DNA from: a candidate division FCPU426 bacterium
Lineage (GTDB): Bacteria > Oederibacteriota > Muellerivitia > Muellerivitales > Muellerivitaceae
Assembly: GCA_963847625.1 (NCBI GenBank)
Contig: CAWKAR010000013.1
Location: 64,001-128,000 of the forward strand
Direction: 5' to 3'
DNA: 64,000 nt
Part shown: positions 12,741-33,612 of the stretch, in pieces
How positions within the stretch are numbered: the first letter of the stretch is position 1
How the letters are laid out: each line of letters begins with the position of its first letter
Made by a program: the position numbers and the translations under genes
Notes under the pieces: model-generated
Seen by the model: only the letters and a program-made list of their open reading frames with translations
Told to the model about the DNA's origin: nothing
Database searches by the model: none

Positions 12741-13946
12741 TTAAAACCTGATCTCGTAATGGGTGCCGAGGTTCCAAAAGTCGTAAATGGCATCAGTAGG
12801 ATTGTTGTTGATGTCGTAACCGTAGTTATGGGCCAAGATCCTGTCATATGACACGAAAAACCTTAACGCGGATGTTTCATCCAAGGATAGTTTCCAGGAT
12901 GGCTCCAAACCAGCCATAAATCCCCCCCCGTTATAGAGGTCGAGGTTGGATATGTTATAACCGTTGGGAAAGACGTATTTCGCGACGCCTGATAAAGTGA
13001 GATCCCCGATGGCGTAACTGGGCGTCAGGTAGAACCTAGGGCCGTAGGAGTACGTGGGTTCGGCGGTGAACTGTCCATTGATCTCCCTTTTACAGGGCAG
13101 GTAAACCTGGCCGCCCAGCTCGAGGGAAAAGGCGGTGGGATTGTTCCATCCATAGGAGGCATTGAAATTAGTCCCCAACTGGAAACTGTTGACCCCGTTC
13201 TCCTGGGTGGGGACCGAGAAAAACGCCGAGGCGCGGATCACCTCCTTGTTCCCGTCCGAAAAAGTCTGGACGTGGTTTGCCGCCACGAAAATGGAATCTC
13301 CCAGCTTCAATTGAGTGCCGGGATTGGGCACCAGGTTCGCGTTCGGGTTGAAGGCGCCCGAGTACATGTAACCCACCCCCGCCCCGAAATCGCCGCCGCC
13401 GGAAGGAAAAGATATTCCGTACAGGGCGCTGATCCCGAAACCACGCCCCTGGTAACGCGTGTCCACAAAGGCCGTGGGGACATTCGCGAGGTATTGCTGA
13501 ACTTCCCAGGATTGGTCCCCCGTCGGCAAGTTAAATGCCACATCCAACAAGGCCGGCAGGTCGAAATTCTTAAAAGACAACTGGCCGCCAAGGACCGTGT
13601 CCGAGACGTTGCTCAGGTTGATCGTTTGGGACGACTCGGTGTAATGCCCGTCCGCGAACTCGGAATTGCCGTAGACCTGAAAATCCTTGGACAAATTCAA
13701 GCTCGCGGCCAAGGGGGTCAGGATTTCCCAACCGCTGAACGGCGGTTGGAAATTGCTGGACCATCCCGCGTATTGGACCCCCAAACCAAGCTGGCCTGCC
13801 GGGGATGCCATTGGGAGAACTAAGAAAGCCAAGACCAAGCAGGCTTTTTTAAGATAACCCACTAAAATCCAAATTATCGGTTTTTCGCTTTTCAAGGCAA
13901 AACCTTTCCCACCTTCATTCAAGTTCTCCGGTCTCACCGATATCAT
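12741..13946 (-). CDS. Outer-membrane beta-barrel protein, paralog 1
   Basis: Hydrophobic leader, alternating beta-strand pattern, C-terminal HYEIRF; clear paralog of 28855-30048 (NLPTGD.WE, YMYSGAFNPN, QLKLGDS, GPRFYLTPSY). Start codon uncertain. Confidence 0.75.
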   Translation of the reverse strand: MISVRPENLNEGGKGFALKSEKPIIWILVGYLKKACLVLAFLVLPMASPAGQLGLGVQYAGWSSNFQPPFSGWEILTPLAASLNLSKDFQVYGNSEFADGHYTESSQTINLSNVSDTVLGGQLSFKNFDLPALLDVAFNLPTGDQSWEVQQYLANVPTAFVDTRYQGRGFGISALYGISFPSGGGDFGAGVGYMYSGAFNPNANLVPNPGTQLKLGDSIFVAANHVQTFSDGNKEVIRASAFFSVPTQENGVNSFQLGTNFNASYGWNNPTAFSLELGGQVYLPCKREINGQFTAEPTYSYGPRFYLTPSYAIGDLTLSGVAKYVFPNGYNISNLDLYNGGGFMAGLEPSWKLSLDETSALRFFVSYDRILAHNYGYDINNNPTDAIYDFWNLGTHYEIRF

Positions 13947-13948
13947 CC

Positions 13949-14755
13949 TCAGGGCTTCACGTTGATTTTTATATTCAGTCTACCCCCGCCCTCGACGCCG
14001 GGATCGTTCAGATTATTCTGACCATTGATGATCAAACCCGACCCGAATTGCCCGGTAAGGTCATTTAAAGCCGGGTTGCCGGGTGTACCGTTGCCGTTAC
14101 CCCCTGTCGTCGAACCGTTTCCGTTGCCGCCCCCCGATGAACCATTGCCGTTTCCCCCTGTGGAAGAGCCGCCCCCTGGGACGTTCAACAAAATCCCGCC
14201 CTCAAAATTCAAATCCTGTCCCGGGTTATAAAACTGGAATTTGCCGTTGACGTCCGTGTATACGGTGCCTTCATATACATGCAGGTGGACCCCCTTGTGG
14301 GTGGGGTCGTAAGAAACCGAGAACCGTGTCCCGCGGACCCCGCAGACCACACCGCCAGCCTCGATCTCAAAGGCGGACTTGGCCGAGAACAGCTTGGTCA
14401 CCTTGGCGAGCAGTTGGCCCAGCCTTAGTTTGAGCTTGATGATCTTGTCATTGGGGTTTGGCTTTTTGAGGTTATCAACCCAGAAATCGGTGTTGGGGCT
14501 GATCTTGAGTTCGGACCCGTCGAAGATTTTCAGGGTGGCCTGGGCGTCGGAGCCGGTGACGATACGCTCATTTTCCCCTACTGCGGTGTTCTTTTTAGCC
14601 AGACGGATCATATGCCCCTTGTGGCCCCGGATCTCGATCTTTCCAGTAACGGAGGTGAAGATGGCCTCTACCGGGGTCGATACGGCCGGAGGCGCTGCCA
14701 AACAGTAAATCGGCAGCAAGACCACCAGCGCCGTCAGAAGAATTTTCCTTCTCAT
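13949..14755 (-). CDS. Secreted FecR-domain protein, paralog 1
   Basis: Signal peptide; I.TG....A.L..FDGS and FEIEAGGVVCGVRGTRF FecR-domain signature; Gly/Asn linker. Confidence 0.8.
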   Translation of the reverse strand: MRRKILLTALVVLLPIYCLAAPPAVSTPVEAIFTSVTGKIEIRGHKGHMIRLAKKNTAVGENERIVTGSDAQATLKIFDGSELKISPNTDFWVDNLKKPNPNDKIIKLKLRLGQLLAKVTKLFSAKSAFEIEAGGVVCGVRGTRFSVSYDPTHKGVHLHVYEGTVYTDVNGKFQFYNPGQDLNFEGGILLNVPGGGSSTGGNGNGSSGGGNGNGSTTGGNGNGTPGNPALNDLTGQFGSGLIINGQNNLNDPGVEGGGRLNIKINVKP

Positions 14756-14794
14756 AAAAACCTCTTCAACTTGAATTGCTGCTTCATAAACCTT

Positions 14795-17700
14795 CTAACG
14801 CGGAGCGAATTTCTGGACCCGCCCGCTGCCGTAATCCGCGACGTAAATGTTTCCCGTGCCATCCACCGCCACACCGGCGGCCCGGTTGAATTGGCCCGGG
14901 GCCGTGCCCGTGGAGCCCCACTCGCTCACTAGGTTGCCGGTTGGGTTGAATTCGACGACCTGGTTATTGGTGCTGTCAGTTGCATAAACATTCCCGGCCT
15001 GGGGGCCGCCCGGCGAGACGGTGATGGCGGTGTAAGTCCCTGAACTTCCATACCATTGGGTGATGGCGGAACCCGCGGCGGTGTAGAGATAAACAGCAAG
15101 GGTCCCATCGGTCACATAAACGGTCGTTCCGGCCGAGTTGACCGCCACCGCGGCGTCACAACAACCCACGTTCCAGGCGGCTTGGTTGGCGCCTGAAGAA
15201 TTGAAGGTTTGAACGGTATAAGAGGCCCCGTTTTCTCCCACATAAACATTGCCGGAGGAATCCACGCCTACACCCGAAACACCATAGAGGTAGCCAGGCA
15301 TTGCATATCCATAAGAGTTGTAATTTCCGAATGTCAGAAGTGCGGTTCCTGAAGGACTGTATTTGTAGATATAATTATTCCCACTGTCGGTGATGTAGAG
15401 ATTGCCCGTGGCGTCCGTAGTCAAAGCTTCCGGCGCCCCGCCCGAAATGGTCCAGGTAGCCGAAGCGGAATAATTAACCCCGTCGGAACTGGTCCAGGCT
15501 TGGATATCCGGAATATAGTAATAACTAGCCTGGAAATTGTAGGAGAGGTAAAGGCTGGTTCCGGCCGAATTGACGGCGATTCCTCCGGTGTTTTGCCAAC
15601 CGTAAATTGTGGAAGAGTCCTGGGCCACAAAGGAAGCAATCGGAGCTACCGGCGTGGGGGTGGATGTGGGTATGTATCCCCCCTGCACCACCAGGCGATA
15701 ATCACCGTCGGAGCCGTTGTAGTTCGAGAAAACGGCTACGTAATAATCCCCGGCCGGGAGAACGTCCGACGTGCCGTTAGGATAGGACATATCACCGCTG
15801 GAATCGATGACCGATATCCCTCCGCCTCCAGTGTCAACGTAGAGATCAAAGCCCACCTGGTCCAGGTAATTTCCATTGTCGAAGCAATCCAGGGATATGT
15901 TGTAAAAGATGTTGTCGGACCCGGCGGTGAAGTGCCAAACATGCTGGGCCCCGACGTAAAACTGCACACTGCCAAGGCCGACCGCTGTCGTACCGCTGGA
16001 AACCATCCCCAGTTCGTCCGCCACAGCGGCAGAAGGATTCGCGGAGCTGGAAATATTAGGTTTAGAGGCTCGAACTGGCGCGACACTTCCAAGATAACCG
16101 CAGGTAGGCTGGAATGGTTCAGGGTCAGGGTGAAGGATCCATATTGGCTTGAATCAGCCCCGTCCACGATCAGGTAATAGGTGCCGGGATTCAAAAGAGG
16201 GGTGATGAAATCCGGATAAGTACAGCCATCCCCGCAGTTTCCGGCGCCCAAGGACAGGGTGGTGGAAGGGTCATCCTGTTTCGTCCTCAAATACGCCGCA
16301 AAGTAGGTATTGATGCCGTTCCCAAAACGGATGTCAAGCTGTTGGGGCTGGTTCAGGGTGAACATGTAAACCAAATCCGGGGCCCCTTTGCCCCAACTGT
16401 TTCCCTCGAGGTCCGTGTAGGAATGCGCGTCAGGCTGTCCGGTCGTATCGCCAATGAGGGTCATTCCGCTGTTGATGTAGGAAGTGATGTCCTGCGCGGG
16501 TTCGGGCGTAGGCGTGGGGGCCAGGGTCCCCTGAATGACCAGGTGATAGTCGGAATCCGAACCGCAGGTATTGGCGTACGCCGCCACATAATAGTCCCCC
16601 GGGTCAAGCCAGTCCGACATTTGGTTCGGGTAGGAGATTTCCGTAGTGGCGTCCACCAATTGGAACCCGCCGGACCCGTTGGGCTGGTAAAGATCCAGGG
16701 CCACCTGGTCCTTCCCCGTTCCGTCATCGTAACAATCGGCGGAGAGGGTGTACTCCCCCGGCGCCGACACGTGGAAAAGCCAGGTATTGACGGGGCTCAA
16801 GTCGTATTTAACTTGACCCGTTCCCACCAAGTCTGACCCAGGTGAGACAATCCCGATATTCCCCGCGTCAGTGAAGAGAGTGTCGTCCACTCCCGGGGTG
16901 ACGGAAGGATTAGGCGTGGAGGTGGGGGTCAAGGCGCAAATGGGATTGAAATTTGAAACGGTCATTGAAAAAGGGCCTACGTACAAAAAGGTGGAATTGT
17001 AAAAGCTATCCACGACAACGGTATAGGTCCCGGGTTGAAGCTGTCCCGTTGTCAGCGAGGTTTGGTAAAAGCCCGAGCAGAGATTCACATCGGAAAGGGT
17101 GGAACCGTTGGGCCCCAGGATATACAGGAGGGGATAATACAAATTAACGTTTGCGGTCAAATTGAAATAAAGCCTTTGCGGGGTAGAAAGATTGAAAGTA
17201 AATGCGGTATCAGGCACCCCCGATCCGTAAATATTAGTCGCCCCGCCGCTGACAACAGTAGCACTGTAGTTGTCCGCGGACAAAGAGGTATCGCCCGTGA
17301 TGGCCTGGCCGCTGTTGATATAGCCCGTGATGTCCATGTTCGGGGCGGCGTAGGTGGGGGTCGGTGTGGGGGGGAAAGTATTGGTGGGAGTGGAGGTGAC
17401 GGTCGGGATTCCCGACACCAGGCCTTGGAGGACTAGGTGGTAATCGGCGTCAGTGCCGCAAGTGTCGGCATAAACAGCCACAATATAGGTGACTCCGGCC
17501 GTCAGCCAATCGGTGGTTTGGGCTGGTTCGACCCCGAACGCGGAGGCATCCATATAGGAAACACTCCCGGCACCCAGGGATTGGTAGAGATCGAAACCTT
17601 CCTGCGACTTCAGAGTGCCATCATCGAAACAATCCAAGGAAACAATGTATTCCCCGTCAGCCTGGACGGTGAAAGCCCAGATGTTCACGTCTCCCATGTT

Positions 17701-20234
17701 TTCTTTCACGTTGCCCTGGGCGACCAAATCCGACCCCACCGAAACGGAACCAAGATAGCCGGCATCGGTATATGTACTATTGTCCACGCCGGGTGTCACA
17801 GAAGGAACCGGCGTGGAAACCGGCGTTAAATGGCAGACAGGATTAAAGGCGGAAAGACTCAAACTGAACGGCCCTTGGTTATAGGGAGGATAGTTCCCGT
17901 AATCGCTGTCCACGACCACGTAATAGGTTCCGGGCTGCAATGCGCCGGTTGCCAAGGAATATTCGGAACCGGAGCCACAGCTCGAATTCAAATCAATCAT
18001 GGTGGAGGGGTCTGTCGGGTTGGTCAGAATGTACAGGAGGGGGGTGTAATAAGTCGCCGATAGGTTGAAATAAAAAGCTTGGGGCGCCGTCAAAGTGAAT
18101 TGGAAGCTGACATCCGGGGAGCCCAAACCGTAGGTGGTAATGGTCGTTGTCGCCATGGAAAAATAGTAGCCCTGGTGGTTATCCGCGGAATTGGCCGTGT
18201 TGCCGGTGAGGGTGACGGTTTGTCCGGCGATGGCGTTATTGACGAGGGAGGTGATGTCCTGGCCTCCCGGCGGTAGCGTCGCGGTCGCGGTGGGCGTGGA
18301 CGTGGGCGTGGGGCTCAAAAGGTAATTCTGAACAACCAGCCGGTAATCACCGTCCGAACCGTCGGCGATGGAATAAACCGCTACGTTATAGGTTCCTTGG
18401 GCCAGGACGTCCGCTATCTGGTCCAAAGGCGTATTGCCGGCCGAGGAATCAATTAGAGTGCCGTAAGAATCGTAAAGGTCCATGGCCACCCGGTCCTTGC
18501 CGGTCCCGTCGTCGAAATTGTCCAGTGAAAGGTTGACTAACGTTCCATCATTGGCAACGGTGAAACTCCATGTATCCACCTCATCCAGGTAATACTTCGC
18601 GTTCCCGGTTCCGGCCAACTGGCCGCCCACCCCAAAGTTCCGAGGCTGGTGGTTTGGGTGAAATAAGTGTCGTCATTGTTGGGCTCGGCTTCGGCGGCCG
18701 GAACGGCCGTGGGTGTCAGCGCGGCGGTGGGTAGGAACGAGGTGATGGACAGCACGAAGGGGCCAAAGTTGCCGGGACTGAAACCATCCACGACCACGTA
18801 ATAGGTACCGGGGGTAAGGAGGCCCGTGGCCAGGGTGGTTTGGAGACTGCCGCCGGCGCAGTATTGGGAGTCGTCCGCGAGATCTACCAGGGTGGAGGAG
18901 GGGTTGTTCGGGTCGGTGCAAAGGTAAAGAACCGTGTCGAAATTGGCGTTACAGAGGTTGAAAAAGAGTCGTTTTTGCCCTGTAAGGGTGAACTTGTAAA
19001 CGAGGTCCGGCGCCCCGGTTCCCCAGTTATCCCCATTGACCATGACGCTATGGCCGTCGGGCTGGCCGCTGGTGTCCCCGGATACCGATGCCCCGTCGAT
19101 ATTACCCGTGATGTCCGGATAGGCGACAGTGGGGGTGGGGGTACCTGAGGGTGTCACTGTTGGGGTTTGGGTTGGAAGCGGGCTTGTAGTGATAGTGGGA
19201 GTCACAGTAAGAGTCGGCGTCGCGGTCGGGGTTTGGGTCAGAACTGGGCTGGTAGTGTTAGTGGGAGTCCCGGTTATAGTCGGTGTCGGGGTGGGTGTAG
19301 CTGTCTGGGTCGGGCTCGAAGTAGGGGTGAGGGTGGAGGTGGGCGTCGACAAGGGCGACAGGCAGGTCCCGTGAATGTCCGCGTTGGTCTGCTCATAACT
19401 GAAATAAGGGACGTTGGTGTTGACCCGGAACCGGAAGGATGGCCCAAAGCTGGCAGAGCCGGGATTGATGACTTGAAGCCAGGCGTGTCCGCCGCCTGCA
19501 AATTGGCAGCAATAAACGTCGGAGGCTTGAAGGATGGTGGTTGCAATCCCAGCCGCTTGTTTCGCCGCCCCCGAAGAGGAGAAATAACCGGCGGATGGAG
19601 CCGCCGCGAAATTCACAAGATTCCCATTTCCAAGATATGCCACGTTGGCGGCACCCTGGGCGTCCCGGATCTGGAAACCTCCCGATGCGGGGTTCAAAAG
19701 GATGTCGTAACCCGTGGAGGTCGCGGTCGTGGCGTCCGCCAAGCTGTCGTTCTCGAAGGAGAAATAGGAACCGTTCGCGAGCAGGGACGTGTCCACCGAA
19801 TAACAGTTGCTCCCCACCGGTCCCAGGTTCACCGTCACGGTTCCGGAACCCGGCGGGTTGAAGTCGAATAGGGCCGCGCCCAGCGCCAGGGGCTGGTGGT
19901 TGGAGGCGTTGTTTAATTGGAGAGCAAGCAAGCGGGAGGTTCCCGGTGGGATGGTGACCGTGAGATCCAGCGAACCCGTATTTCCCGGCGCGCTGAAGGG
20001 CCCGGCGGTTCCTGATACCGGGGACATTCCCGGTCCCGTTATCCGGTACAGGATTTCATTGCTCGCCGCGCCTAAAAGATTCGCTGAAAGTTCCTTGCCC
20101 GCGGGGATGGAAATGGAAAGGGTCGAACCCTGGTAAGGCGCCACAGGGGCGGGGGAATGGTTGGTACAGCCCGTATAAACGAGCAAACCCGCCAAGAAAG
20201 AAAAAGATACGGGAACCAGGAAGCGTTTTTGCAT
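14795..20234 (-). CDS. Giant surface lipoprotein B (~1,813 aa if restored): shared N-domain, T/P stalk, four paired beta-sandwich modules, NHL propeller; split by two -1 frameshifts
   Basis: ORFs 18537-20327, 15736-18630 and 14795-16024 join into a continuous repeat pattern if one base is added at 18630-18633 and one at ~16116; lipobox VYTGC after ATG 20234. Confidence 0.75.
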
Positions 20235-20429
20235 TTTCCAGTTCTTTTCAATAAAGATAACGCAGGTTGAACAATGGCCATTACAGGGAAGGATAAAGCA
20301 CGGATGAACTTTTCCCTTAAACGTCAATATTTTGATTGAAAATAGTCCTAAAAATCAAGAAATAAGCTTGTTGAGTATTTAAGTAAAAGACAATAACGGT
20401 TAATCGAAAAAAGTGGGTTAAAAATAGCC

Positions 20430-22679
20430 CTACTTTGTTTTCATGACGAAAACGCCGTCCCAATCCGGGGGGAATTGTTCCTTTTCCAGGATTCTGCAAC
20501 GCTCCAGGAATATCCTCGCCGGGCCGTCATGGGAGTCCAGTTCCAAGCAGTTCCGGAAACACTGGGAGGCTTCCTTCCATTTTTGCGCGCGGTAGAGTCC
20601 GAGCCCTTCCTCGAAAACCTTTGCCTTCATTTCCTTCATACCCGCGGCCTTCAAGCGGTGGTCCACCAGCTCGTAGATGCGGATGGGGCGGGACTTACCC
20701 TTCACCCTCAGCAAGTCCAACTCGCGGCAAAGCATGTCGTCCTTGACCTGGACGTAGGTAGTCTCGCCAATGATGATCTCAACCCCGTATTCCTTGGTGG
20801 CTCCCTCCAGGCGGCTTCCCAGGTTCACCGCATCCCCGATCAAAGTGTAGTTCTTGATGGATTCCGAACCCACGAAACCCACCACCATGTTTCCCGTATT
20901 CAGGCCGATGCCGATCTCCAGTTTTTCCTTCCCTTCCATCTCCCACTTGGGGTGGAGAAGGGATTTCAGCAGGTCCACCATCCCCAGGGCGGTGCTACAG
21001 GCCCGGTAGGCATGGTCCTTTTGCTCAGTGGGCGCCCCCCAGAAGGCCATGACCGCGTCGCCGATGTACTTGTCCAGGGTGCCCTCGGTCTGGAAGATCA
21101 GGTGAGTCATCTGGGTCAGGTACTCGTTGAGCACAGCTACGACTTCCGCGGGCGTATGCTTCTCGGAATAAGTGGTGAATCCCCGGATGTCTGCGAACAT
21201 GACCGTGAGGTCCTTCTCTTCGCCACCCAGCTCGATGCCCGCCGGTAGTTTCAGGATTTCCTCCACGACCTTCGGCGTCACCATGCTCTGGAATGTCTGC
21301 TTGAGGTAACGGCTGTATTTGACCTCGGTGCGGAACTTGTAGGTGGTGAGGGCCGTGAATGTCAGGGCCAGGGAAGCGAGGGGATAAACCAGGTTGATCA
21401 CGTCGCCCAGGTAATTAAAGCAGAGGCAGGCCGCCGCGAAGTAGGCGATTAAAAGAAAGAAAAACCCGATGGTTCCCTGCATGGGGGTAAGCCTTGGGAT
21501 CAGGAACCACATCAGGAGCCCGAGGACCAGGATCAACAGGTAGGTCCAATAATCCGGGAGAAGCTTCAGGAAACTGCCCGAGTACACGTTCTCCAGGATG
21601 TTGGCGTTCATTTCCACCCCGGAGGAGTTGTGGGTATAGGGAGTGGGTCTCAGGTCGAATAAGCCCGTGGCCGTGGCGCCGATGATGACGGCGGCTCCCT
21701 TCAAGACCCCCGGTTCGAGCTTGCCGGAAAGCACGTCGCATACGGAGTAAGTTGGGAAAGTCCCCTCGGGGCCGCAATAATTGATGAGCGCGAAGTTATC
21801 CTCCAAAACCGGTATTTTTCTTCCCGCCACTTCGGCATAGTCGCCCGAATGGATCTGAATGGGCTTCAAGTCACCCATCAGGTAGCGGGCCACCTGCAGG
21901 GAAAGATGGGGGATGAGCTTTCCCTGGTAGGAGAACGCGGTGGGATAGTAGCGGTAAATGCCGTCCGAAAAGGGGAAACAACGCGTATGCCCGGAATCCC
22001 GCACGTTGTTTTGGAGCGCAGGGATCGAGAGAAGAAGGGATTGGGAGGGCACGAAATCCTGGATAAATCCCCCGAACAGCTCGGCCTCGGTCATATGCAG
22101 GGATTCGGGGTTGGGGCTTCTCCCCTCTTTTCCGGTGATGAAAGGCTCGATGGGAAGGAACACGTTCCCGGCATCCTTTATAGCTTTGGCGAACTCCATG
22201 TCCCCGTTTTGGTTTTCCGCCAGCCGGTGGAGGTCGGCGAGGATTTTTTCGCGGATCTTTTGGGCCGGCGGGGAATCCCCCGGCAAGGTGGAGTCCAGAA
22301 GGGACTTCAATTGGCCGATCATCTTTCCCTGGGAACGTTCCGGCTCGGGGAAAAATACGTCATAAAAGACGCATTTCACGCCGTCTTCCTTCAAGCGGCG
22401 GATCAACTGCGCCTGAAGCGCCCGGGGCCACGGCCATTGGCCGACTTCCCTCAAGCTCTGTTCGTCCACGGCCAGGACCTTGATGGGGGCTTGGGGCGTG
22501 CGGTAACCCCTCACGGCGAAACGAAAATCGATGGATTTGTTTTCCAGGGCTTGGAATAAGGGAATATGGTTATTGAATAAGTTGCAGGCGGAAAGGAGGA
22601 GAATAACCCCCAGGGTCAACCAAAGTGAGGTGGACCGGCGGTAATGGACCTTGACTTCTCGGGCTTGGGCCTCGGGCAT
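20430..22679 (-). CDS. CHASE2-domain class III adenylate cyclase
   Basis: VDEQSL..VGQWPWPR and GVEMNANILEN (CHASE2); three TM helices; FADIRGFT, DKYIGDAVMA, YTLIGDAVNLGSRLEG with ATP-specifying Lys/Thr and catalytic Asn/Arg. Confidence 0.95.
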   Translation of the reverse strand: MPEAQAREVKVHYRRSTSLWLTLGVILLLSACNLFNNHIPLFQALENKSIDFRFAVRGYRTPQAPIKVLAVDEQSLREVGQWPWPRALQAQLIRRLKEDGVKCVFYDVFFPEPERSQGKMIGQLKSLLDSTLPGDSPPAQKIREKILADLHRLAENQNGDMEFAKAIKDAGNVFLPIEPFITGKEGRSPNPESLHMTEAELFGGFIQDFVPSQSLLLSIPALQNNVRDSGHTRCFPFSDGIYRYYPTAFSYQGKLIPHLSLQVARYLMGDLKPIQIHSGDYAEVAGRKIPVLEDNFALINYCGPEGTFPTYSVCDVLSGKLEPGVLKGAAVIIGATATGLFDLRPTPYTHNSSGVEMNANILENVYSGSFLKLLPDYWTYLLILVLGLLMWFLIPRLTPMQGTIGFFFLLIAYFAAACLCFNYLGDVINLVYPLASLALTFTALTTYKFRTEVKYSRYLKQTFQSMVTPKVVEEILKLPAGIELGGEEKDLTVMFADIRGFTTYSEKHTPAEVVAVLNEYLTQMTHLIFQTEGTLDKYIGDAVMAFWGAPTEQKDHAYRACSTALGMVDLLKSLLHPKWEMEGKEKLEIGIGLNTGNMVVGFVGSESIKNYTLIGDAVNLGSRLEGATKEYGVEIIIGETTYVQVKDDMLCRELDLLRVKGKSRPIRIYELVDHRLKAAGMKEMKAKVFEEGLGLYRAQKWKEASQCFRNCLELDSHDGPARIFLERCRILEKEQFPPDWDGVFVMKTK

Positions 22680-25600
22680 GGCGGTATTCTAAGCGCGAAA
22701 ACCATCAACAGCAAACGGTTTTCGAGGATTTTGAATCTTGAATTTAAAATCAAGGATGAATGAAGCAATAAAATTAGAACTTAAATGAATGCAATCAACG
22801 TTGAGGCAACAGTCCACCTTCAATCCGCGTCACTGCCCTGAATTCAAATTGTTTCGAAGGAATTTAAGCCATCCAGATGTCGCCGCGACTGATCCGAAAC
22901 CAAAATATTTTCGGAATATTTTAGGGGGGAATGTTATAAACGCTGAGGTTCCGGAACGTGATATCACCTTGATCGGCCTGGAAGCCGAAGTTGCCCGTAG
23001 GATAGGCACTCAAGTTGGGATCCGTGACGGTCAACTGCCAGTCAGGTTCCCCCGCGCCGGTTTGCCATTCTTTCGCCATGATCTGGTCCCCATAAATGCG
23101 CACCCGGTAGGAATACCAGGTGTTGCGGGCGATACAGGGAATGGTGGCCTGGGTTGCGGTGAGGTTATTCCCGTCGGTCCAGGTGGTTTGGCTGCATGCC
23201 GCGCCATTGGGCGCCATCGTATCGTAGAAAAGCCTGCTGGTTCCGACGCAGGTGTCGCTGAGTTGCCATTGGTCGCCCCGGATCATGAAATACTGCTGAC
23301 AGTTAGCGTAACGGGCGATAAAAACGGTGTCGTCGTCGCCCGAATAAGCCGAGAGAGGAAGGCAGGCCTCGTAGTAGAATTCGACGTCCGGCCCGATCGT
23401 GACGTTGGAAATGATTTGCGGATACTGGCTTACCGCCGAGGAATTGTATGGGCCATAATTAAGCCCCATACACCCGCCATTCTCCGCGCGGATGTACCAG
23501 GCAGCCCCGGGCCAGCCATAAGTCGCGCCGCTGCTGGCCGTCCCAGCGTTGGTCCAACCCGTGGGCATGCTGGTCATCGGGTAGGAATACAGTAAAACAG
23601 GGGTAGGTGTCGGGGTGGCAGTAAAGCAAGGCCGGACCACTGAAATTGCGTTCGAAATTATATTGTTGCCACCATAGGCCACAGAAGCAGTGTTGATTAA
23701 CATTTGGCACTGATTGTTTTGCCAATTAGAATCCACAAAATTCGTGTACATGGTAACGCAATTGCTTCCTCCGCCAAATTCGCTCCAATAAATTTGATTG
23801 CCATTAACAAAGGGTTGACCCCCTCCATTGGTGTAACAGGAAGTCGGCTCAAAGCCCCAACAATTAAATGAAAATGTCGTTCCACTCTGGTTGTCTGTGA
23901 CTGTAACCCCTCCGGTTGACACAGGGCCGCCGTCGTTGCATGCCACGATTGAGAAAGTGGCGAACATATTGTTGGAGCTATCGGTCACCGGTGTGCCGTA
24001 TTGGGCGCAGGTGATAGAAAAGTTTGGCGGTCCAGCCAAAGTCGAGGGAGGAGGGATCGTGGTTGCCTGCCGGAAGAAAAGAGCTCCGAATGAGTTGGCT
24101 GGGTTATAAGCTCCGGAACTGTCCGAGGAAATGAACGGGACTTGACTGCCGCTAACAGGATTGAAGAGGGGTTGGCCCCAACAGCATAAACCGGAGGTGG
24201 TGTTAACCACTGTCGGGTTGCCCCAACCGCTGTCATCATAGTTGGTCGCGTACCAATTGCTCGCGGGGGGAGTAGTGGGGTTCCCGATACTGATGTAATC
24301 CATCTTAACGCCGCCGCTCCCGCTGGTGATTTCGGAATGCAGGCCATTGGAATAGGTGATATCCAAGTCCCAGGAACTGTAAACGTTGTTGGTGGCCGTG
24401 TTTTGGGTATAAATGGCGATATTAACTTGGCTCCCGGTTAATAGAGTTGGGTTTATGAAAATACAACCCGGTGGGCAGGTACCGCTGCCATCCCAGTTGC
24501 AATAAGTGATTTCGCCTAAGTAAACCCCACCTATGTAAACTTGTGACCAGTCGTCACTATTCATGCAAATCTGCGCGTGGGTTATCGTGGTGGATATGGG
24601 AGTCGGGGTAGAAGTGACTGTGGCAGTGGGCGATATCGTTCCTGTTGGGGTGTCCGTAACCGTGGGCGTGTTCACCGGTGGATTCGTTTGGATAACCAAG
24701 CGGTAATCAGAACTGTTTTCTGATTGGTTGGCCGCATAAACCACAACCGTGTACTGCTGCTGGGTTAAAGACACACCCAAGGCATCCAACGGGAAATATC
24801 CAAGAGAATTCGCAACCAGGTTGGTATTCGAATCGTAAAGGTCGTACCTCACCCGCGACCTATGCGATCCGTCATCGAAACAGTCCAGCGAGATCGACGC
24901 GGGGCCGGCCGTGGCAGGCGTGAAAGTCCAGGAATTGGTGTATTGCAAATAATAATCAACATGGCCCACGCCCACCAAATCGGAGTAGTAATTGCCGAGG
25001 GTTCCCAAGTCGGTGGTTCCCAACGGGCTCGCGAGCGTCACCGGGGTGGAAACAGGCGTCAGTACGCAGTTTGGCGTGAAAGTACTCAGGCAAAGGGTAA
25101 AAGGCCCGCGATCGGGCCAACTTTCACCAATATAACTCCCATCCACGATTAAGTAATAAGTTCCAGGTTGTAAAACACCAGTCACCAACCCGGATCCGTA
25201 GGGTTGTCCGCAATAATCGCATTCGGTATCGTAAGCCAAGGTAGTGGAAGGATTTTCCGGATCGGTCCTGACATAGATACAGGAGTAGTTGGTTGTCCCG
25301 CAAAGGTTGATAAAGAGGCTCTTGGCGGTGTCAAGCGTGAACTTGTAGACGATGTCCGGTGATCCCGATCCGTTATACAGGTTCCAATAAGAACTGTCGT
25401 ACTGGGAATGATTGTCCGGCATGCCGGTGGTATCGCCATTAATGCAAGCCCCGTCGATGTTGGCCGTGATGTCCATGATCCCAGGAGTCGGAGTGGGCGT
25501 TGCCGTTGGGCTAGGAGTGGATGTATTAATTGGCGTGAGGGTGGATGTGCTCGTGGGAGTAGCGGTATAGGTCGGTGTAAGAGTGGGCGTGTTGCAAATG

Positions 25601-26058
25601 ACCGTGATGGAAATGTTGTTGCTGGTAACCGGCCCCCCTCCCGGCCAACTGGCTATTCCCCTGTCGGTGACAACCTGGCAATAATCGCTGGAAATCGCGC
25701 TATAAGAACCCACGTTGAAATCGATCGGGACACAATCACCGCCCGGAAGGCTGAGAACCTGCCAACTGAGGTTCGGGTATGTCGTACCTACCGGATTGAT
25801 CGTAACCGGATCACTTCCCACCATCACGGTCCATTGGCTGTAATGAAGTCCTTGGAAGGACCATAATAGTGGATTGGTGATATCGTCGGTCACCGTGACT
25901 CCAGTAACCGTCCCCGCTCCCGCCGCATTGCAAACCATGATGGTCATGGCAATGGCGCTGGCGTCGGAGTAATTAGAGGTGGGGCCGCCGGTGGTCTTGG
26001 TCAAGCTGATATTTGGCGACCCCGGCGTAAGTGTATTTGTCACTATCGGTGTAAGAGT

Positions 26059-26393
26059 GGGCGTAGTACTTGGCGTGACCGTGGATGTATTTGTGGGCGA
26101 TGCCGTCCCGGTAAGTGTGTTCGTCGGGGTGGTGGTCGAGGTAAAAGAAAGGGTAGAGGTGGAAGTTGATGTCGAAGTGAATGTCCTGGTAAAAGTGGGA
26201 GTGGACGTATTGGTCGGCGTTGAAGCGGGCGTAGTACTTGGCGTGACCGTGGATGTATTTGTGGGCGATGCCGTCCCGGTAAGTGTGTTCGTCGGGGTGG
26301 TGGTCGAGGTAAAAGAAAGGGTGGAGGTGGAAGTTGATGTCGAAGTGAATGTCCTGGTAAAAGTGGGAGTGGACGTATTGGTCGGCGTTGAAG
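26059..26393. repeat. Near-perfect 168-bp in-frame tandem duplication in the Thr/Pro stalk
   Basis: GCGTAGTACTTGGCGTGACC starts at 26061 and 26229; a 56-aa unit is repeated. Confidence 0.85.
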
Positions 26394-27732
26394 TGGGCGT
26401 AACAGTTGGCGTGAAAGTGCGTGTGTTAGTGGGCGATGCCGTCCCAGTCAGAGTGTTCGTCGGTGTGCGGGTCGGTGTAGAAGTTGGAGTTAAGGTGTAG
26501 GTGGGAGTGGATGTCGAAGTGAATGTCCTGGTAAAAGTGATGGTAGGTGTGTTCGTGGGCGATACCGTCCCGGTCAATGTATTCGTCGGGGTGAGTGTCG
26601 GAGTGGCCGTAGGCGTAGATGTGGAAGTGTTGGTTGGTATCGGGCTGTTCGTAGAGGTGGGTTGGACGGTAAGGGTTGCCGTTGGGCTACTGGTCGGGGT
26701 CAAGGTCTGTGTAGGGGTTGGAACCGGGCTGTTCGTAAAGGTGGGTTGGATGGTAAGGGTCGGCGTTGGGCTGTCGGTCGGCGTCGGGATGAACGTAGCG
26801 GTCATGGTAGGGCTCAAAATCGGGGGAAAGGTAGGAGTGGGGACTGGGGTCAAGCACATGCCGGCCAAATCCGCTGCGGTGGGGTCATAGGCGCAATAAG
26901 GGAGGGTCTTGTTGGCCCGGAACCGGAACAGGGGTCCTTTGGAAAGGGTCCCAAAGGGCTGGTTGGGGTTGACGATTTGGACCCAGGCATAGCCGCCGGC
27001 CGCGCCCAGCCCCAGGCTGACGCAGTAAACATCACCGGCTTGTAAAAAGGCGGGTGACGCGAATGCCGCCGTTTGCTTAGCGGTTGCAGAGGAGGAAACG
27101 AAGGCCGTGGGTACAGGCGCCGAAGCGAAATTCACCAGGTCCCCGTTGCCCAGAAAAGCGACCCCGTTGTTGCCCAGCGCCGTGATTTGAAAACCCCCGG
27201 CCATGCTCGTAACGGCAATGTCATCAGAGCCTGAACCCGAACTGGATAAGACATCGTTTTGGAAGGAGAAATATGCGTTCCCGCCAAAAGACGAGGTATC
27301 CACCGTATAGCAGTTCCTCACCACCGAACCCATGGTCACCCAAACATTGCTCACGCTTCCCGCGGCTATGTCCATCTGGACGGCGCCCAAGGCCAAAGGC
27401 TGGTGATTGACCGCGTCGTTCAACTGGAAAGCCATCAGGCGGGACGGGCCCTGGGGAACGGTGATGGCAACATCCACCTCGCCGGATTGTGAACTGGTGT
27501 TGAAAGGCCCGGCGACACCGGTAACCGCGGCCATTTTCGGCCCGGTCACCTTGTACAGGATTTCGTTGAGGGTGACCCCCAACAGGCTGGCCTTGACCTC
27601 CTTGGTGATAGGGATGGAAAGGGATAAAGCCATGCCTTTGGCGGGCGCCACCGGCGAGGTGGGCGAAGATTTCCCCCGGCATCCGCCATTGGCGAAAATC
27701 CCTAAAACCAAGCCGATGGTTGATATAAGGAT

Positions 27733-28787
27733 CCCGAGTTCCATAAGTAAGTGCAACACTTAGTGTCTGAAGAAGGCCGCATGAATAGGATATGCGGCTA
27801 TGAAAAAGAAATACAAGCATTTAAGCGTTGAAGAAAGAGATCATTTATCCGTCTTGAAAGGAAAGGGTCTTAGCCTTCGAGCAATTTCACGCGCCTTGAA
27901 GAGGTCTCCTTCCACCCTCTCCAGGGAACTCAAGCGCAATGCTCCCCCTATCCGTTCTGGTTATTATCTTTCTCATCGAGCCCATCAACGGTATGTTGAC
28001 CGCAACCAACAACGAGCACGCCGTTTACGCCTGAAAACAAAACGAATTCGTGCCTACGTCCGTCGTCAATTGAAACGAGGCTGGTCTCCAGAACTCATTT
28101 CAGGTCGATTAGGTCACCTACGGCCTAAGCAAACCATTGGTCCTGAAGCTATCTATCAGTGGGTTTATGCTGAAGCCACTGAGCTGATTCCTTGCCTAGT
28201 TCGACACCACCGGCGACGATTCTCATTTGGCCATAGCCGTAAGCACGCCAAAAACCATATCCCAGGCCGTGTTTCCATCGATAAGCGCTCCGAGATCGCC
28301 AATCAACGCAAGCAATTCGGCCATTGGGAAACCGACACCATGGTCTCTCGTCAGAGTAAAGTGGCTATGCGGGCTCTCGTCGAGCGTCAAAGCCGTTTTT
28401 CCAAGTTGGGAAAGCTCAAACGAAAGACCGCTCGCCAAATGAGTCATAGCCTCAACCGCGCTTTATGCCGCTTCCCTCAAGACGCCCGCCTGAGTCTGAC
28501 CTATGACAACGGAACCGAAAACACCAACCACTTGGAAACCAACCACGTGCTTGGTACAAAATCCTTTTTCTGCGCCCCTTTCCACAGTTGGGAAAAAGGT
28601 ACGGTGGAAAATACTATCGGTCTTGTCCGCCGCCATTTGCCTAAAAAGACTGATCTTGCTAAAGTGTCCTTCAAAGAATTCAGGACCATAGAAAGATGGC
28701 TCAATAACAGGCCCAGGAAATGTTTGGGCTTTAAAACTCCGGCGGAAGTCTTCCGGCGAAGTGTTGCACTTACTCCGTGAATTCGGC
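27733..28787 (+). mobile_element. IS30-family insertion sequence (1,055 bp)
   Basis: Imperfect terminal IRs with core AGTAAGTGCAACACTT; 3-bp target duplication GAT at 27730-27732 and 28788-28790. Confidence 0.9.
27800..28780 (+). CDS. IS30-family transposase
   Basis: N-terminal HTH STLSRELKRN, WSPELI, GHWETDT, TYDNGTE, WEKGTVEN, LNNRPRKCLG. Confidence 0.95.
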   Translation: MKKKYKHLSVEERDHLSVLKGKGLSLRAISRALKRSPSTLSRELKRNAPPIRSGYYLSHRAHQRYVDRNQQRARRLRLKTKRIRAYVRRQLKRGWSPELISGRLGHLRPKQTIGPEAIYQWVYAEATELIPCLVRHHRRRFSFGHSRKHAKNHIPGRVSIDKRSEIANQRKQFGHWETDTMVSRQSKVAMRALVERQSRFSKLGKLKRKTARQMSHSLNRALCRFPQDARLSLTYDNGTENTNHLETNHVLGTKSFFCAPFHSWEKGTVENTIGLVRRHLPKKTDLAKVSFKEFRTIERWLNNRPRKCLGFKTPAEVFRRSVALTP

Positions 28788-28854
28788 GATGAAAATTTTT
28801 ACTTTCAAATTGATCTTCCCTTGGCCCCTTGTTTCCGGCAACTCGAAAGGGCTG

Positions 28855-30048
28855 TTAAAGTTTCAATTCGTAATCCGTCCCGAAGGTGAAACGGTTGTAA
28901 ATGATGTCCGTGCGGCTTCCCGCGGCATCAAATCCCGCCTCAAAAGCGGTGATGTTGTCGAAGGACGCTTTAAATTTGAGCGCGGATGTATGGCTCAACC
29001 GCACCCGGAAGGACGGTTCCAACCCCAATAAAACCCCGCCCCCGTCATAAAAAAGGTCCGTATTCGGATAGCCATTGGGAAGCACATATTTGGCCCTGGC
29101 CGCAAGGGTTAGATTTCCGAATGAGTAACTGGGCGTCAGGTAGAAGCGCGGACCCAGGGAGGAATGGGACTCGGCCATCAATTGCCCGTTCACCAGGGTC
29201 TGGGACGTGAAGAAATACTGGCCGCCCGCTTCGAACGAAAAGGCCGAGGGGTTCTGCCAGCCATAGGAAGCGTTGATATTGGGGCCCATCTGCAGAAGGT
29301 TGGTGCCGTTCGCTTGGGTGGGAAGGAAGTAAAAAGCCGACAATCGGATGACATCACTTTGGCCGGTTCCATGGGCGGTAACCCGGTTGAGGGACAAAAA
29401 TACGGAATCCCCCAGTTTCAATTGCTCCGCCGGAACCCCCAGGCCGTAATTCGGGTTGAAGGCGCCGGAATACATGTAGCCGACCGCGGCCCCGTACTGG
29501 GCCTGCCCAGCCGGCAGGGCGATTCCGTACAGCGTGCTCATCCCGAAACCTCTTCCCCGGTAGCGGCTGTCTATAAAATCGTAAGGAAGGTTGGATGCCG
29601 AAGCCTTTGTCTCCCAGGTGGGATCACCGGTGGGCAGATTGAAGCCGATGTTCAAGGCCGAAGGCAGGGAAAAGGCGTTGAACCCCATCTGCAGTCCCGC
29701 TACCGTGTCGGTAAAACCGGTCAGGCTCTGGGTTTGCGTGTTCTTGAGCGAATCGGTATATCGCCCGTTCCCGAATTCGGTCTGGGCGTATAGTTGAACG
29801 CCCTTCCAAGGGAACAGGCTCAAGGTGAAAGGGGTCCAAATTTCCCGGCCGTTGAAGGGCTGGACATAGTTGGAATCCCAGGATTCGTACTCGCCGCCCA
29901 CGTTAAGCCGGCAAAAGTAACTTGCGTTTGGTTTCTGAGGCGCTTCGTCCGATAAAACTTTTTCCGGCAAAACCAACAGGGCCGCCAGGGCAAAAACCCA
30001 GCAAGTCATCCGCCGTTTGATTTGGGTTTGGCTCCAAATGCGGTTCAA
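28855..30048 (-). CDS. Outer-membrane beta-barrel protein, paralog 2
   Basis: Signal peptide, beta-strand pattern, C-terminal TDYELKL; TTG start overlaps the FecR stop. Confidence 0.75.
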   Translation of the reverse strand: MNRIWSQTQIKRRMTCWVFALAALLVLPEKVLSDEAPQKPNASYFCRLNVGGEYESWDSNYVQPFNGREIWTPFTLSLFPWKGVQLYAQTEFGNGRYTDSLKNTQTQSLTGFTDTVAGLQMGFNAFSLPSALNIGFNLPTGDPTWETKASASNLPYDFIDSRYRGRGFGMSTLYGIALPAGQAQYGAAVGYMYSGAFNPNYGLGVPAEQLKLGDSVFLSLNRVTAHGTGQSDVIRLSAFYFLPTQANGTNLLQMGPNINASYGWQNPSAFSFEAGGQYFFTSQTLVNGQLMAESHSSLGPRFYLTPSYSFGNLTLAARAKYVLPNGYPNTDLFYDGGGVLLGLEPSFRVRLSHTSALKFKASFDNITAFEAGFDAAGSRTDIIYNRFTFGTDYELKL

Positions 30049-31193
30049 GGCACCGTCTCCTTGGGGGGAACGACCAAGTGGATGTTCAATGTTTGCTGCG
30101 CGGAATTGAGGCAGTTGTCGTTATTAACCAGGATTCCACTGGTGAACTGGTTGTTCAAATCAGTCAAAGCCTCATTGGTTTCCAAGTTTGGAGCCGTAAT
30201 GACCTGCTCTTGCGGATTCAAGGGGGAAACTGGCGGCTGGATGACAGGTTCCACCGCCGGAACCGCATTGCCTTGGCCCGGGGGGGCTGTAGCGTTGCCG
30301 CTTCCGGGAGCGGCAACTACGGAAGTTGCGCCGCCGGCTAAATTTTCGATTGTAGCCCCGCCTGATTGGATTTGTCCCGTGGCGTTGGGGCCTCCTCCAA
30401 CGGCACCAACCACGGAGGTTACGCCTTCCGTGTTTCCGGTTGCAGGTCCGCCGGATTGGGTTTGACCGTTGCCGTTATTATTCCCTCCAACTGCGCCAAC
30501 CACGGAGGTTGCACCGCCTCCCGTGTTTCCGGTCGTAGGCCCGCCGGATTGATTCTGGCCGGTTCCGTTGTTGTTTCCACCTGTTTCGCCTTTAGGATTT
30601 TTATGTAAACTGCCCGGGCCTTCCCCTTCGCGGATCATCCGGCCGTTCTGGAAAATGCATTCATGGCCCGCCGGGCACAACTGGGTGACTCCCCCGGAAC
30701 TCGCGGCAACGACGCCATCCAATACATTCAACCTCATCCAACCGGTCTTTTGGTCGCACTCCATCGTGAATTCGGTTCCCCTGACCCCGCAAACCACGCC
30801 ACCCGCCTCGATTTCGAAGCTGGAATGGGCGGAAAAAAGCTGGCGCACTTTCACCAGGGCTTTTCCAAAACCCAACCGCATAAAAATATTTTTTTCCTCT
30901 TTAAAGGCGTGCAAGGTGGCGAGGGTAAGCCGGCTGTTAGCCATCAATTCCAGGGTGGATTCGTCGAATAACTGCAATGTCGCCTTGGAGGCCCGCCGCA
31001 CGATGATGGTTTCGCCCTGGTAAGCTTTGGCGCCTGTATGGGCCCTTCGAACCGAGCCCATCCCGTTTTGAACGGTTACCGTTCCCTTTACGGATAGGAA
31101 AACAGCTTCCCGTTCGGGTGGGTCGGCGGCTGAAACTGCGTTGAACATGCCGGAGCACAGAAAAAGAAAAGAAATAAGAAAGGGTTTATTCAT
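30045..31193 (-). CDS. Secreted FecR-domain protein, paralog 2, with long Gly/Asn/Pro linker
   Basis: Signal peptide from ATG 31193; FEIEAGGVVCGVRGTEF; C-terminal motif shared with paralog 1. Confidence 0.8.
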   Translation of the reverse strand: MNKPFLISFLFLCSGMFNAVSAADPPEREAVFLSVKGTVTVQNGMGSVRRAHTGAKAYQGETIIVRRASKATLQLFDESTLELMANSRLTLATLHAFKEEKNIFMRLGFGKALVKVRQLFSAHSSFEIEAGGVVCGVRGTEFTMECDQKTGWMRLNVLDGVVAASSGGVTQLCPAGHECIFQNGRMIREGEGPGSLHKNPKGETGGNNNGTGQNQSGGPTTGNTGGGATSVVGAVGGNNNGNGQTQSGGPATGNTEGVTSVVGAVGGGPNATGQIQSGGATIENLAGGATSVVAAPGSGNATAPPGQGNAVPAVEPVIQPPVSPLNPQEQVITAPNLETNEALTDLNNQFTSGILVNNDNCLNSAQQTLNIHLVVPPKETVP

Positions 31194-31401
31194 TACTTGC
31201 CGCTCATGAAATATTTTTTGCCCCATAGCTGTTGGGAAAATCGGCAAAGGGGCAATCGATTAATAATAAGTTTAACTCAAAAAAAATAGATTTGTCGAAT
31301 AAATTGTCTACTCGTAGTAGGGGGTTTTTACTTGGTTTATCTCATGAAAACTGTATTGCAGTACAAGGGAGAGGAATTCGACCTGAATTAAAAATTGCTT
31401 T

Positions 31402-32199: not shown

Positions 32200-32419
32200 G
32201 CGACGTTTCCTTTATTCATGAATTCATAATTCAAAATCACACCTGTCCCAAATAAACCTAGCCACGGATGCATGGGATTCATGGGATTTAACAAACACAA
32301 ATATTTAAAGCCTTTTTTCTTAGCCCAATCTAAATGTATCCCCTGAATCCGTGGCTAAGAAGGGTTTGCCTTAGCAGTTCATTCATAATTCAAAATTTAA
32401 AATTCAAAATTGTTTTTTT
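32200..32419. repeat. Intergenic repeat patch (AATTCAAAAT units; AGCCACGGAT...ATCCGTGGCT inverted repeat)
   Basis: CACACCTGTCCCAAATAAACCTAGCCACGGATGCATGGGA occurs here and again at ~33444. Confidence 0.65.
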
Positions 32420-33277: not shown

Positions 33278-33279
33278 CT

Positions 33280-33610: not shown

Positions 33611-33612
33611 TT

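Follow-up and report, generated by a model that had tools for sequence, protein, structure and literature searches.

In Sinorhizobium meliloti, signal-dependent synthesis of cyclic AMP (cAMP) through the CHASE2 adenylate cyclases CyaK and CyaD requires the outer-membrane protein NsrA, as described in the available text of PMC7529298 and PMC13001267. NsrA, encoded on pSymB, is a single chain of 1224 amino acids (aa) in which a FecR domain is followed by a TPR region (436-550) and a β-barrel of ~500 aa. In Campylobacterota, a conserved cluster encoding a CHASE2 adenylate cyclase, a phosphodiesterase, a FecR-domain protein of the outer membrane as well as a TPR protein is proposed, in the available text of PMC9239204, to represent a single pathway. 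The accessible part of PMC5192318 reports a LysM-FecR protein encoded beside a CHASE2 histidine kinase, in the Burkholderia 'BiofilmReg' operon and as a pair in Pseudomonas aeruginosa, and describes the signal of the CHASE2 sensor domain as unknown. Here, we describe a locus in a 64,000-nucleotide stretch of DNA (referred to as the window; positions 64,001 to 128,000 of contig CAWKAR010000013.1, assembly GCA_963847625.1) from a candidate division FCPU426 bacterium of the family Muellerivitaceae, in which two envelope cassettes, composed of genes for a secreted FecR-domain protein, an outer-membrane β-barrel and a lipoprotein, flank a single CHASE2 cyclase gene. With a probability that we place at roughly 0.5, these cassettes act as the outer-membrane input of the cyclase, which would make the system a split functional relative of NsrA-CyaK.

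Organization of the locus

The features of the locus, listed in the order of transcription (FecR1, barrel1, insertion sequence, giantB, cyclase, giantA, FecR2, barrel2, all on the minus strand except the transposase gene) and preceded by the upstream context, are as follows.

31402..34671, minus strand: ABC-2 type transporter genes (one ATPase, two permeases; Pfam), upstream context
30045..31247, minus strand: FecR1, secreted FecR-domain protein of 400 aa (PF04773, E 1.5e-11, 45 bits)
28855..30048, minus strand: barrel1, outer-membrane β-barrel of 397 aa, unnamed family (structure model and fold matches)
28788..28808, minus strand: 5' remnant of giantB, with the start codon and six codons of the charged n-region of the signal peptide, severed by the insertion sequence
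27733..28787: IS30-family insertion sequence of 1,055 bp (transposase at 27800-28780, plus strand)
22921..27732, minus strand: giantB, lipoprotein with tether, N-domain, long P/T-rich linkers and distal domains
22921..27759, minus strand: giantB open reading frame (ORF) of 1612 aa, the first codons of which are derived from the insertion sequence
20430..22679, minus strand: CHASE2 class III adenylate cyclase of 749 aa (PF05226 and PF00211)
14795..20234, minus strand: giantA, lipoprotein with N-domain, four PPC-like units and a C-terminal NHL propeller, in three ORFs
13949..14755, minus strand: FecR2, secreted FecR-domain protein of 268 aa (PF04773, E 1.2e-13, 51.7 bits)
12741..13946, minus strand: barrel2, paralogue of barrel1, ORF of 401 aa (51% identity to barrel1)

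Read along the forward coordinates, the order is barrel2, FecR2, giantA, cyclase, giantB, barrel1 and FecR1. A preliminary description of this DNA had reported seven co-oriented genes; the gene families and their paralogy were corroborated by Pfam and sequence comparison, while an eighth gene on the opposite strand, encoding the IS30 transposase, had been overlooked. Each FecR gene does abut its barrel gene, with a 4-base overlap for FecR1/barrel1 and a 2-base gap for FecR2/barrel2, but the order given within each pair has to be reversed, as FecR comes first in transcription. The non-cyclase components are indeed paralogous pairs: barrel2 and barrel1 share 51% identity (E 3.6e-111), the N-domains of the two giant lipoproteins align with an E value of 2.6e-78, and both FecR proteins match PF04773. 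The similarity between the barrels, and that between the giants, is far beyond what the sequence comparisons would yield by chance. Pfam analysis of the 10 ORFs of the region bore out the reported absence of an extracytoplasmic function (ECF) sigma factor and of a TonB-dependent receptor, and the same scan found neither a phosphodiesterase nor a TPR gene in the cluster. A promoter and terminator scan of 12000-31600 returned sites no more frequently than shuffled sequences did.

The cyclase matched PF05226 (E 2.9e-49, 168 bits) and PF00211 (E 1.4e-28, 100 bits), and a search of the genome identified it as the only CHASE2 protein encoded there. Its periplasmic CHASE2 domain covers approximately residues 36-389. 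It aligned with S. meliloti CyaK over 416 aa comprising both domains (34% identity, E 1e-50), and the blocks around the metal-binding aspartates and the Lys/Asp pair aligned identically in the two proteins. These residues would have metal-binding and substrate-specifying roles, respectively, the latter bearing on adenylate versus guanylate cyclase activity.

The resemblance to NsrA-CyaK lies in an inner-membrane CHASE2 class III cyclase that is encoded beside a FecR-bearing outer-membrane partner. The two systems differ in that FecR and barrel are separate chains in the window and a single chain in NsrA, in the TPR region present in NsrA and lacking from the window proteins, in barrel size (~360 aa versus ~500 aa), in the dedicated lipoprotein that is added here, and in stoichiometry, as cassettes outnumber cyclases here whereas S. 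meliloti has one NsrA for three cyclases (CyaK, CyaD1 and CyaD2). In a BLASTP comparison of NsrA with FecR1, the FecR domain alone was aligned.

In FecA-FecR-FecI systems, and in Bacteroidota SusC/SusD systems with an anti-sigma factor, a barrel (capped by a lipoprotein in Bacteroidota) signals inward through a periplasmic FecR-type domain, which is alike in outline. The locus in the window differs in that the 10 ORFs of the region encode no ECF sigma factor or TonB-dependent receptor, in that its FecR proteins have no anti-sigma or transmembrane part, carry cleavable signal peptides and match PF04773 only, and in that the output would be cAMP.

In the Campylobacterota cluster, as far as the available text goes, genes for a CHASE2 cyclase and for an envelope protein with a FecR domain are likewise brought together; the cluster differs by the phosphodiesterase and TPR genes that the window cluster lacks, and no lipoprotein is mentioned for it in that text, figures and supplements aside. 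The LysM-FecR systems share with the window a secreted FecR-domain protein encoded directly beside a CHASE2 sensor, and differ, according to the same partial source as above, in their histidine kinase output, their LysM (peptidoglycan) anchor and the lack of a lipoprotein. This pairing favours the view that CHASE2 usually has FecR as its partner in the periplasm. In the available literature on NsrA, CHASE2 and FecR, supplements and figures excluded, no description of the present barrel family or of its lipoprotein partner was found.

Conservation of the cassette within the family

Whole-genome searches covered 31 genomes of the family to which the window belongs (17 genera), within 99 genomes of the phylum, and the coordinate counts cover 81 barrel places (after merging), 85 N-domain places and 30 cyclases in the 31 genomes. 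The barrel was detected in all 31 family genomes, in both genomes of one other family and in none of the 66 genomes of the phylum's other 21 families (33 of 99 overall), and the lipoprotein N-domain was likewise found in 31 of 31. A full-length CHASE2 cyclase, one per genome, was present in 30 of 31, the exception being a genome of 80% completeness. The second barrel-bearing family is uninformative with respect to the cyclase, which is located on a separate short contig in G046, while G047 (89% complete) gave no CHASE2 match.

The conserved unit across the family is the gene order FecR, barrel, lipoprotein. A FecR domain was encoded within 2.6 kb upstream, on the same strand, of at least 68 of the 81 barrels, a lower bound among the matches listed (47 of the 197 FecR matches lie outside these), and an N-domain gene was situated within 400 bases of 60 of the 81 barrels, in all 60 cases downstream and on the same strand. 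In the window, barrel1 and giantB match this order, while barrel2 has no lipoprotein gene behind it.

A barrel was located within 12 kb of 23 of the 30 cyclases. Two layouts recur, namely cyclase, FecR, barrel, lipoprotein, and cyclase, giant lipoprotein, FecR, barrel, the latter corresponding to the position of giantA in the window. The smallest form (L034) consists of cyclase, FecR, barrel and a lipoprotein of 364 aa, and the sister species G056 has cyclase, FecR, a divergent barrel and a 371-aa lipoprotein. The adjacency of cyclase and cassette spans 17 genera with the same orientation and spacing, and in 16 genomes ~2.0 kb separate the barrel from the CHASE2 match. Among the other cyclases, that of G052 lies 16.8 kb from a barrel, behind a giant of 4,852 aa, and that of G064 lies 1.3 kb from a lipoprotein gene; the loci of G068 and G076 are cut by contig ends, and G070 is ambiguous.

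Inspection of 18 fetched loci from uncultured genomes, which overlap the 31 family genomes, showed FecR directly before the barrel in 17, the 18th having only 376 bases upstream. An N-domain lipoprotein gene directly followed the barrel in 11 of these loci; among the other seven, four end at or just past the barrel and two continue with a further FecR gene. The cyclase was in view in seven of the 18. Two fusions were recovered among the barrel relatives, namely P0002, a FecR-barrel protein of 542 aa, called without a signal peptide and present on one contig, and P0073, a TPR-barrel protein of 506 aa present on two contigs. Taken together, they appear to echo the FecR-TPR-barrel chain of NsrA.

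Beyond the family, six cyclase loci of other families of the phylum were sampled. In three (L041, L042 and L045), the cyclase gene is followed by genes for a 217-aa protein, an Ig-like protein of ~340 aa, a FecR protein and a protein of 783-787 aa lacking a Pfam family. This variant resembles the window in its CHASE2 cyclase followed by FecR and a large partner without Pfam family, and differs in that this partner is twice the size of the window barrel and unrelated to it by tblastn, and in that no N-domain lipoprotein is encoded. FecR and CHASE2 look like a constant pair, with outer-membrane parts that may be exchangeable between lineages.

A third FecR-barrel pair of the same genome is located on contig 57 at 16051-18209 (L004, 10051-12209), with a barrel 40% identical to barrel1. 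The next gene encodes a membrane protein of 851 aa that contains a spermidine-synthase domain, and kdp genes are adjacent.

FecR proteins

In FecR1, a Sec signal peptide precedes the FecR domain, which a G/N/S/T-rich linker connects to a C-terminal peptide of ~45 aa that is shared by FecR2. A cleavable signal peptide is present in all 19 relatives analysed, as are the FecR domain and a linker of low complexity rich in G/N/S/P. The C-terminal peptide is strongly conserved across these 19 relatives, mostly finishing in Val-Pro, and its conservation (50-72%) exceeds that of the FecR domain (~40%).

The NCBIfam models LipL45, Lsa33 and Lsa19 matched the FecR proteins far below their cut-offs, and the LapA retention module reached 30 bits against a cut-off of 50; all of these were read as a shared FecR-type fold and not as membership.

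Barrel model and predicted docking of the lipoprotein

Neither barrel was assigned to a family by Pfam or NCBIfam, and the relatives retrieved (at least 80) are all metagenomic and unnamed. When 22 barrel relatives were compared with Pfam at E values up to 5, a single stray SUN match was obtained, and no Slam (DUF560), TonB-dependent receptor or other outer-membrane family. A Phenol_MetA_deg lead, present in 16% of a cluster of look-alikes, was not confirmed by Pfam.

The AlphaFold2 model of barrel1 (predicted local distance difference test score, pLDDT, 81.4; predicted template modelling score, pTM, 0.76) showed a closed barrel of ~16-18 strands (18 by DSSP count), with short turns on the side of the termini and long loops on the opposite side. 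Its fold matches were outer-membrane barrels of 16-18 strands with tied Z scores of 16-18.6 (CdiB, porins, OprB/OprP, PelB, PgaA and BcsC), and no Slam entry was among the best 50. These matches are generic for the modelled fold and name no family. The termini and short turns of outer-membrane proteins are usually periplasmic, and the long-loop mouth of the modelled barrel is probably the outer, cell-surface side.

For complex prediction, barrel1 and the C-terminal 66 residues of FecR1 were combined with the giantB N-domain, which was the partner to be scored. The lipoprotein-barrel docking score was 0.64 (runs 0.65, 0.00 and 0.64), compared with 0.27 for the best of three controls, resulting in the verdict 'supports binding'; the corresponding mark is reached by 116 of 157 solved complexes and by 2 of 215 mismatched pairs. 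Partner pLDDT was at least 77, and the runs agreed in at least 3% of contacts. The score expresses the confidence of a model rather than a measured interaction. Neither the barrel nor the lipoprotein N-domain has a sequence relative in the PDB (both profiles gave chance-level rows, E 0.066 and 0.026), and the pass is therefore not a recall of a solved homologous complex.

In the predicted interface, lipoprotein residues 34-42 contact barrel residues 59-63, 101, 151, 332-335 and 370-382, all of which are on the long-loop side of the barrel model. The prediction thereby supports a lipoprotein that is held by its tether at the long-loop, presumably outer, mouth of the barrel and would be surface-exposed. 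The preliminary description had proposed that the conserved N-domain docks on a dedicated barrel; docking is supported by the controlled prediction, while the predicted contact is made by the tether that follows the lipobox and not by the globular N-domain. The C-terminal peptide of FecR1, which was unscored in this model, touches the partner through residue 385 alone, which is a hint only.

The lipoprotein family

The giants share an N-domain of ~290 aa, as had been reported: the quoted motifs are present in both translations, and identity was 51% (47% over 291 aa in a second comparison). The distal domains had been described as different, which is only partly the case, since a PPC-like two-domain unit of ~270 aa occurs in four copies in giantA and in one copy in giantB. 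Pfam detected PPC and NHL in parts of giantA and no family in giantB, and NCBIfam gave no family for either giant. A separate large NHL-repeat protein of secreted type, encoded at 9746-11038, is 27-30% identical to the C-terminal propeller of giantA over ~250 aa.

Among 1.84 billion proteins, the N-domain family comprised 110 clusters at 50% identity. The domain is always N-terminal, and the proteins that carry it range from ~300 to 3,942 aa, many being stand-alone proteins of ~300 aa. The conserved core is thus ~300 aa, whereas the length of the tail varies from 0 to over 4,000 aa, and the tails are, judged from the sequences, optional add-ons. The notion of a giant antenna as an essential part is not sustained, as most family members are only ~300 aa in length.

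The lipobox cysteine was invariant in all 29 aligned N-domains, with a preceding Gly in at least 90%, and the N-termini of 14 relatives were inspected for the lipobox as well. By signal peptide and lipobox cysteine, the giants are predicted bacterial lipoproteins. The tether carries a proline-x-x-proline motif 7-15 residues past the lipobox cysteine, both prolines being present in at least 90% of the 29 sequences, and two further N-domain cysteines were conserved in at least 90% of these, one of them being invariant.

The AlphaFold2 model of the giantB N-domain (pLDDT 82, pTM 0.78) consisted of a low-confidence tether and two β-domains. The first showed a weak likeness to pilotin or C2-type sandwiches (Z 7.5-8.3). 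The second (~148-290) matched five HmuY-family or related chains with Z 9.4-10.6 and a root-mean-square deviation of 2.8-4.2 over 116-129 residues, at 12-19% identity. Foldseek returned no match for the N-domain at E <= 0.001, and a protein-atlas search with this domain gave no usable match.

A split relay and its alternatives

According to the relay reading, the lipoprotein would dock through its proline-bearing tether on the long-loop mouth of the barrel, where it would constitute the sensing or reporting part. The conserved C-terminal peptide may anchor the FecR protein at the barrel, the flexible linker would give its FecR domain enough reach to contact CHASE2 in the periplasm, and events at the surface lipoprotein would thereby alter cAMP synthesis. 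Cassettes elsewhere in the genome might signal in trans to the same cyclase or work without a cyclase. The link to the cyclase is inferred from its steady place beside the cassette, from the P0002 and P0073 fusions and from the recurrence of FecR with CHASE2 among other partners. The barrel family, the tether-bearing lipoprotein and the many cassettes per genome are new features of this presumed lineage-specific, split relay of the NsrA-CyaK type.

A number of observations weigh against such a relay. The preliminary description had proposed a test for co-occurrence of barrel and N-domain with FecR and CHASE2 genes; within the family, co-occurrence was largely observed, in the linkage of barrel, N-domain and FecR and in the 23 of 30 cyclases near a barrel, but only 28 of the 81 barrels lie within 12 kb of a cyclase and 53 are distant. 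Genomes contain 1-11 barrel places versus one full-length cyclase, and all 31 genomes are kin of one family, so that the counts describe one lineage and not independent events. In the complete genome G058, no cassette occurs within 49 kb of the cyclase, a deletion between conserved flanking genes having apparently removed it, and G071 has no cassette on the 14 kb of contig downstream of its cyclase; both appear to be true exceptions. The third FecR-barrel pair has neither a lipoprotein nor a cyclase gene beside it, and in three of the six sampled loci of other families no FecR gene is near the cyclase. CHASE2 proteins were found in 89 of 99 phylum genomes versus 33 of 99 for the barrel, and CHASE2 therefore does not need this barrel; similarly, the genome encodes 13 class III cyclase domains (and 11 cyclic nucleotide-binding domains), and cAMP is therefore not dependent on the CHASE2 cyclase. 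With regard to NsrA, Pfam detected no TPR family in FecR1, FecR2, barrel1 or barrel2, and BLASTP of NsrA against barrel1, a sequence comparison only, gave no meaningful alignment, the best match (23.5 bits) being in the TPR part. Finally, one of the three docking runs scored 0.00, and agreement between runs was low.

The main rival, unlikely in our estimate though a serious competitor, regards the cassette as an autonomous surface-lipoprotein device in which the barrel holds or exports the lipoprotein, or cooperates with it in ligand binding or uptake, comparable to HmuY-HmuR, SusD-SusC or Slam and its cargo, FecR serving as a periplasmic accessory and the cyclase as a mere neighbour or tied to one copy. 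The distant barrels, in genomes that can have as many as 11 barrel places, and the lipoprotein gene that follows the barrel in 60 of 60 cases are in line with it, as are hypervariable tails of the kind seen in adhesins or binding proteins and the predicted docking on the long-loop (probably outer) mouth. Structurally, the modelled second half of the lipoprotein head resembles the all-β fold of HmuY, and its gene lies beside a barrel gene, as in HmuY-type systems; identity is 12-19%, however, and the window barrel is not a TonB-dependent receptor, no TonB box or plug domain having been seen in the barrels. The TPR-barrel fusion P0073 resembles the Slam layout. A Slam (type XI) fold would have 14 strands and a periplasmic TPR part; the model of barrel1 has ~16-18 strands, the window barrels have no TPR, and none of the 22 barrels matched Slam (DUF560) or a TonB-dependent receptor at E values up to 5. 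Against an autonomous device stand the cassette found next to the only cyclase in no fewer than 23 of 30 genomes, always in one of two fixed layouts, and the recurrence of neighbouring FecR and CHASE2 genes, together with unrelated barrels, in other families and phyla.

Alternatively, the cyclase could have the FecR-barrel pair alone as its partner in signalling, an NsrA in two pieces, with the lipoproteins as signal-free passenger adhesins anchored on the barrel. NsrA works without a lipoprotein known from the available text of its reports, the third FecR-barrel pair and several pairs in relatives lack a lipoprotein gene, and in the window both lipoprotein genes are damaged while the FecR, barrel and cyclase genes are intact. 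We nevertheless regard this reading as improbable, given that the core of ~300 aa, with its invariant cysteine and tether, is kept in 31 of 31 genomes and in minimal four-gene clusters, and that most of the barrels without a lipoprotein gene are situated at contig ends. Least of all do we favour a neighbourhood without function, in which chance or hitch-hiking brought a multi-copy, mobile-like cassette next to the cyclase: even sister species G056 has another layout and the region holds an active insertion sequence, but an adjacency that 17 genera retain with unchanged orientation and spacing (~2.0 kb in 16 genomes), together with the linkage of FecR to CHASE2 in unrelated lineages, makes this highly improbable.

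The relay reading may be taken further, to a rather doubtful extension in which up to eleven interchangeable receptors per cell, each consisting of a barrel, a lipoprotein with HmuY-like binding head and variable stalk, and its own FecR tether, converge on one CHASE2 cyclase. The FecR C-terminal peptide would enter the barrel from below and touch the lipoprotein tether at the outer mouth, and the signal of a ligand bound outside would cross the outer membrane to the FecR domain and then pass to CHASE2. If true, this would provide a general answer to what CHASE2 senses, namely the state in which its FecR-domain partner is.

The one studied case of CHASE2 input is that of the rhizobial cyclases and NsrA. 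The recurring pairing of CHASE2 with a secreted FecR protein, seen with a small barrel and lipoprotein in the family studied here, with a protein of ~785 aa in sister families, and with LysM or TPR-barrels in print, points to FecR domains as the usual periplasmic input, FecR and CHASE2 being kept while outer-membrane parts are swapped between lineages. The split relay would add a third component, the lipoprotein, to the NsrA-type scheme, in a compact form of four genes (cyclase, FecR, barrel of ~360 aa and lipoprotein of ~300 aa) with a predicted tether-barrel contact that can be mutated.

Damage to both lipoprotein genes

As assembled, both lipoprotein genes of the window are damaged, while the FecR, barrel and cyclase genes (both copies where paired) are intact. 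The transposase at 27800-28780 was identified by NF033563 (236.7 bits versus a cut-off of 80) and by the Pfam domains HTH_38 and rve. The element has imperfect terminal inverted repeats and is flanked at both ends by an identical direct repeat of 3 bases. Barrel1 and giantB are 1,095 bases apart, nearly all of which the element fills; the distance from the barrel gene to the lipoprotein gene behind it is at most 400 bases in relatives. Its left end is within the giantB ORF, the first nine codons of which are insertion sequence, and the hydrophobic core of the signal peptide and the lipobox resume at 27732, past the element. Beside the other end, the remnant at 28788-28808 has seven in-frame codons, including the start and two lysines. 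The insertion is thus inside the region coding for the giantB signal peptide, which is split, and the gene is cut off from barrel1. Approximately 40 copies of the element, at 99-100% identity and with common ends corresponding to 27731-27734 and 28787, were detected in the genome, which points to a recent expansion.

The second lipoprotein gene, giantA, had been taken as one ORF. It consists of three, with lengths of 596, 964 and 409 aa, because the frame shifts by one base at two sites, one within a run of G near 18630 and the other at 16115/16116, while intact counterparts in relatives are single ORFs of 1,595-2,524 aa. A related-strain contig (95-99% alike) from a public peat metagenome has an extra base at 16115, which restores the giantA frame there; the two peat-metagenome runs examined contain related strains only (90-99% alike), and the site near 18630 is outside their coverage. 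The frame changes may be either true mutations or assembly errors.

With both lipoprotein genes damaged, the sensing route is probably impaired in this genome, and the system may be decaying or running without lipoproteins. Frame changes, together with two in-frame stops, divide an AcrB/RND (resistance-nodulation-division)-type transporter gene at 45426-48583 (minus strand) into five or more pieces, which shows that true pseudogenes occur in this genome rich in insertion sequences and bears on the frame changes in giantA.

A second element, of the IS3 family (rve_3 transposase, 1,196 bp), is present as inverted copies of 100% identity at 35656-36851 and 61720-62915, with 19 copies of more than 1 kb in the genome. 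The pair brackets ~25 kb of the window and could be a composite transposon or an inversion substrate.

Neighbouring genes

The ABC-2 transporter trio upstream of FecR1 directly adjoins the CHASE2 cyclase gene, on its upstream side, in relatives L033 and L034, and in the window it is parted from the cyclase by the FecR1-barrel1-giantB cassette alone; its membership in the system is only context. Elsewhere in the window, 41167-44337 encodes a 1,056-aa protein with DUF7948 and an SBBP β-propeller, a large repeat protein of secreted type, and 52219-52632 encodes a PIN-domain protein. A short ORF at 62966-63505 matches only the end of Fic/DOC (profile positions 63-93 of 93) and is probably a fragment.

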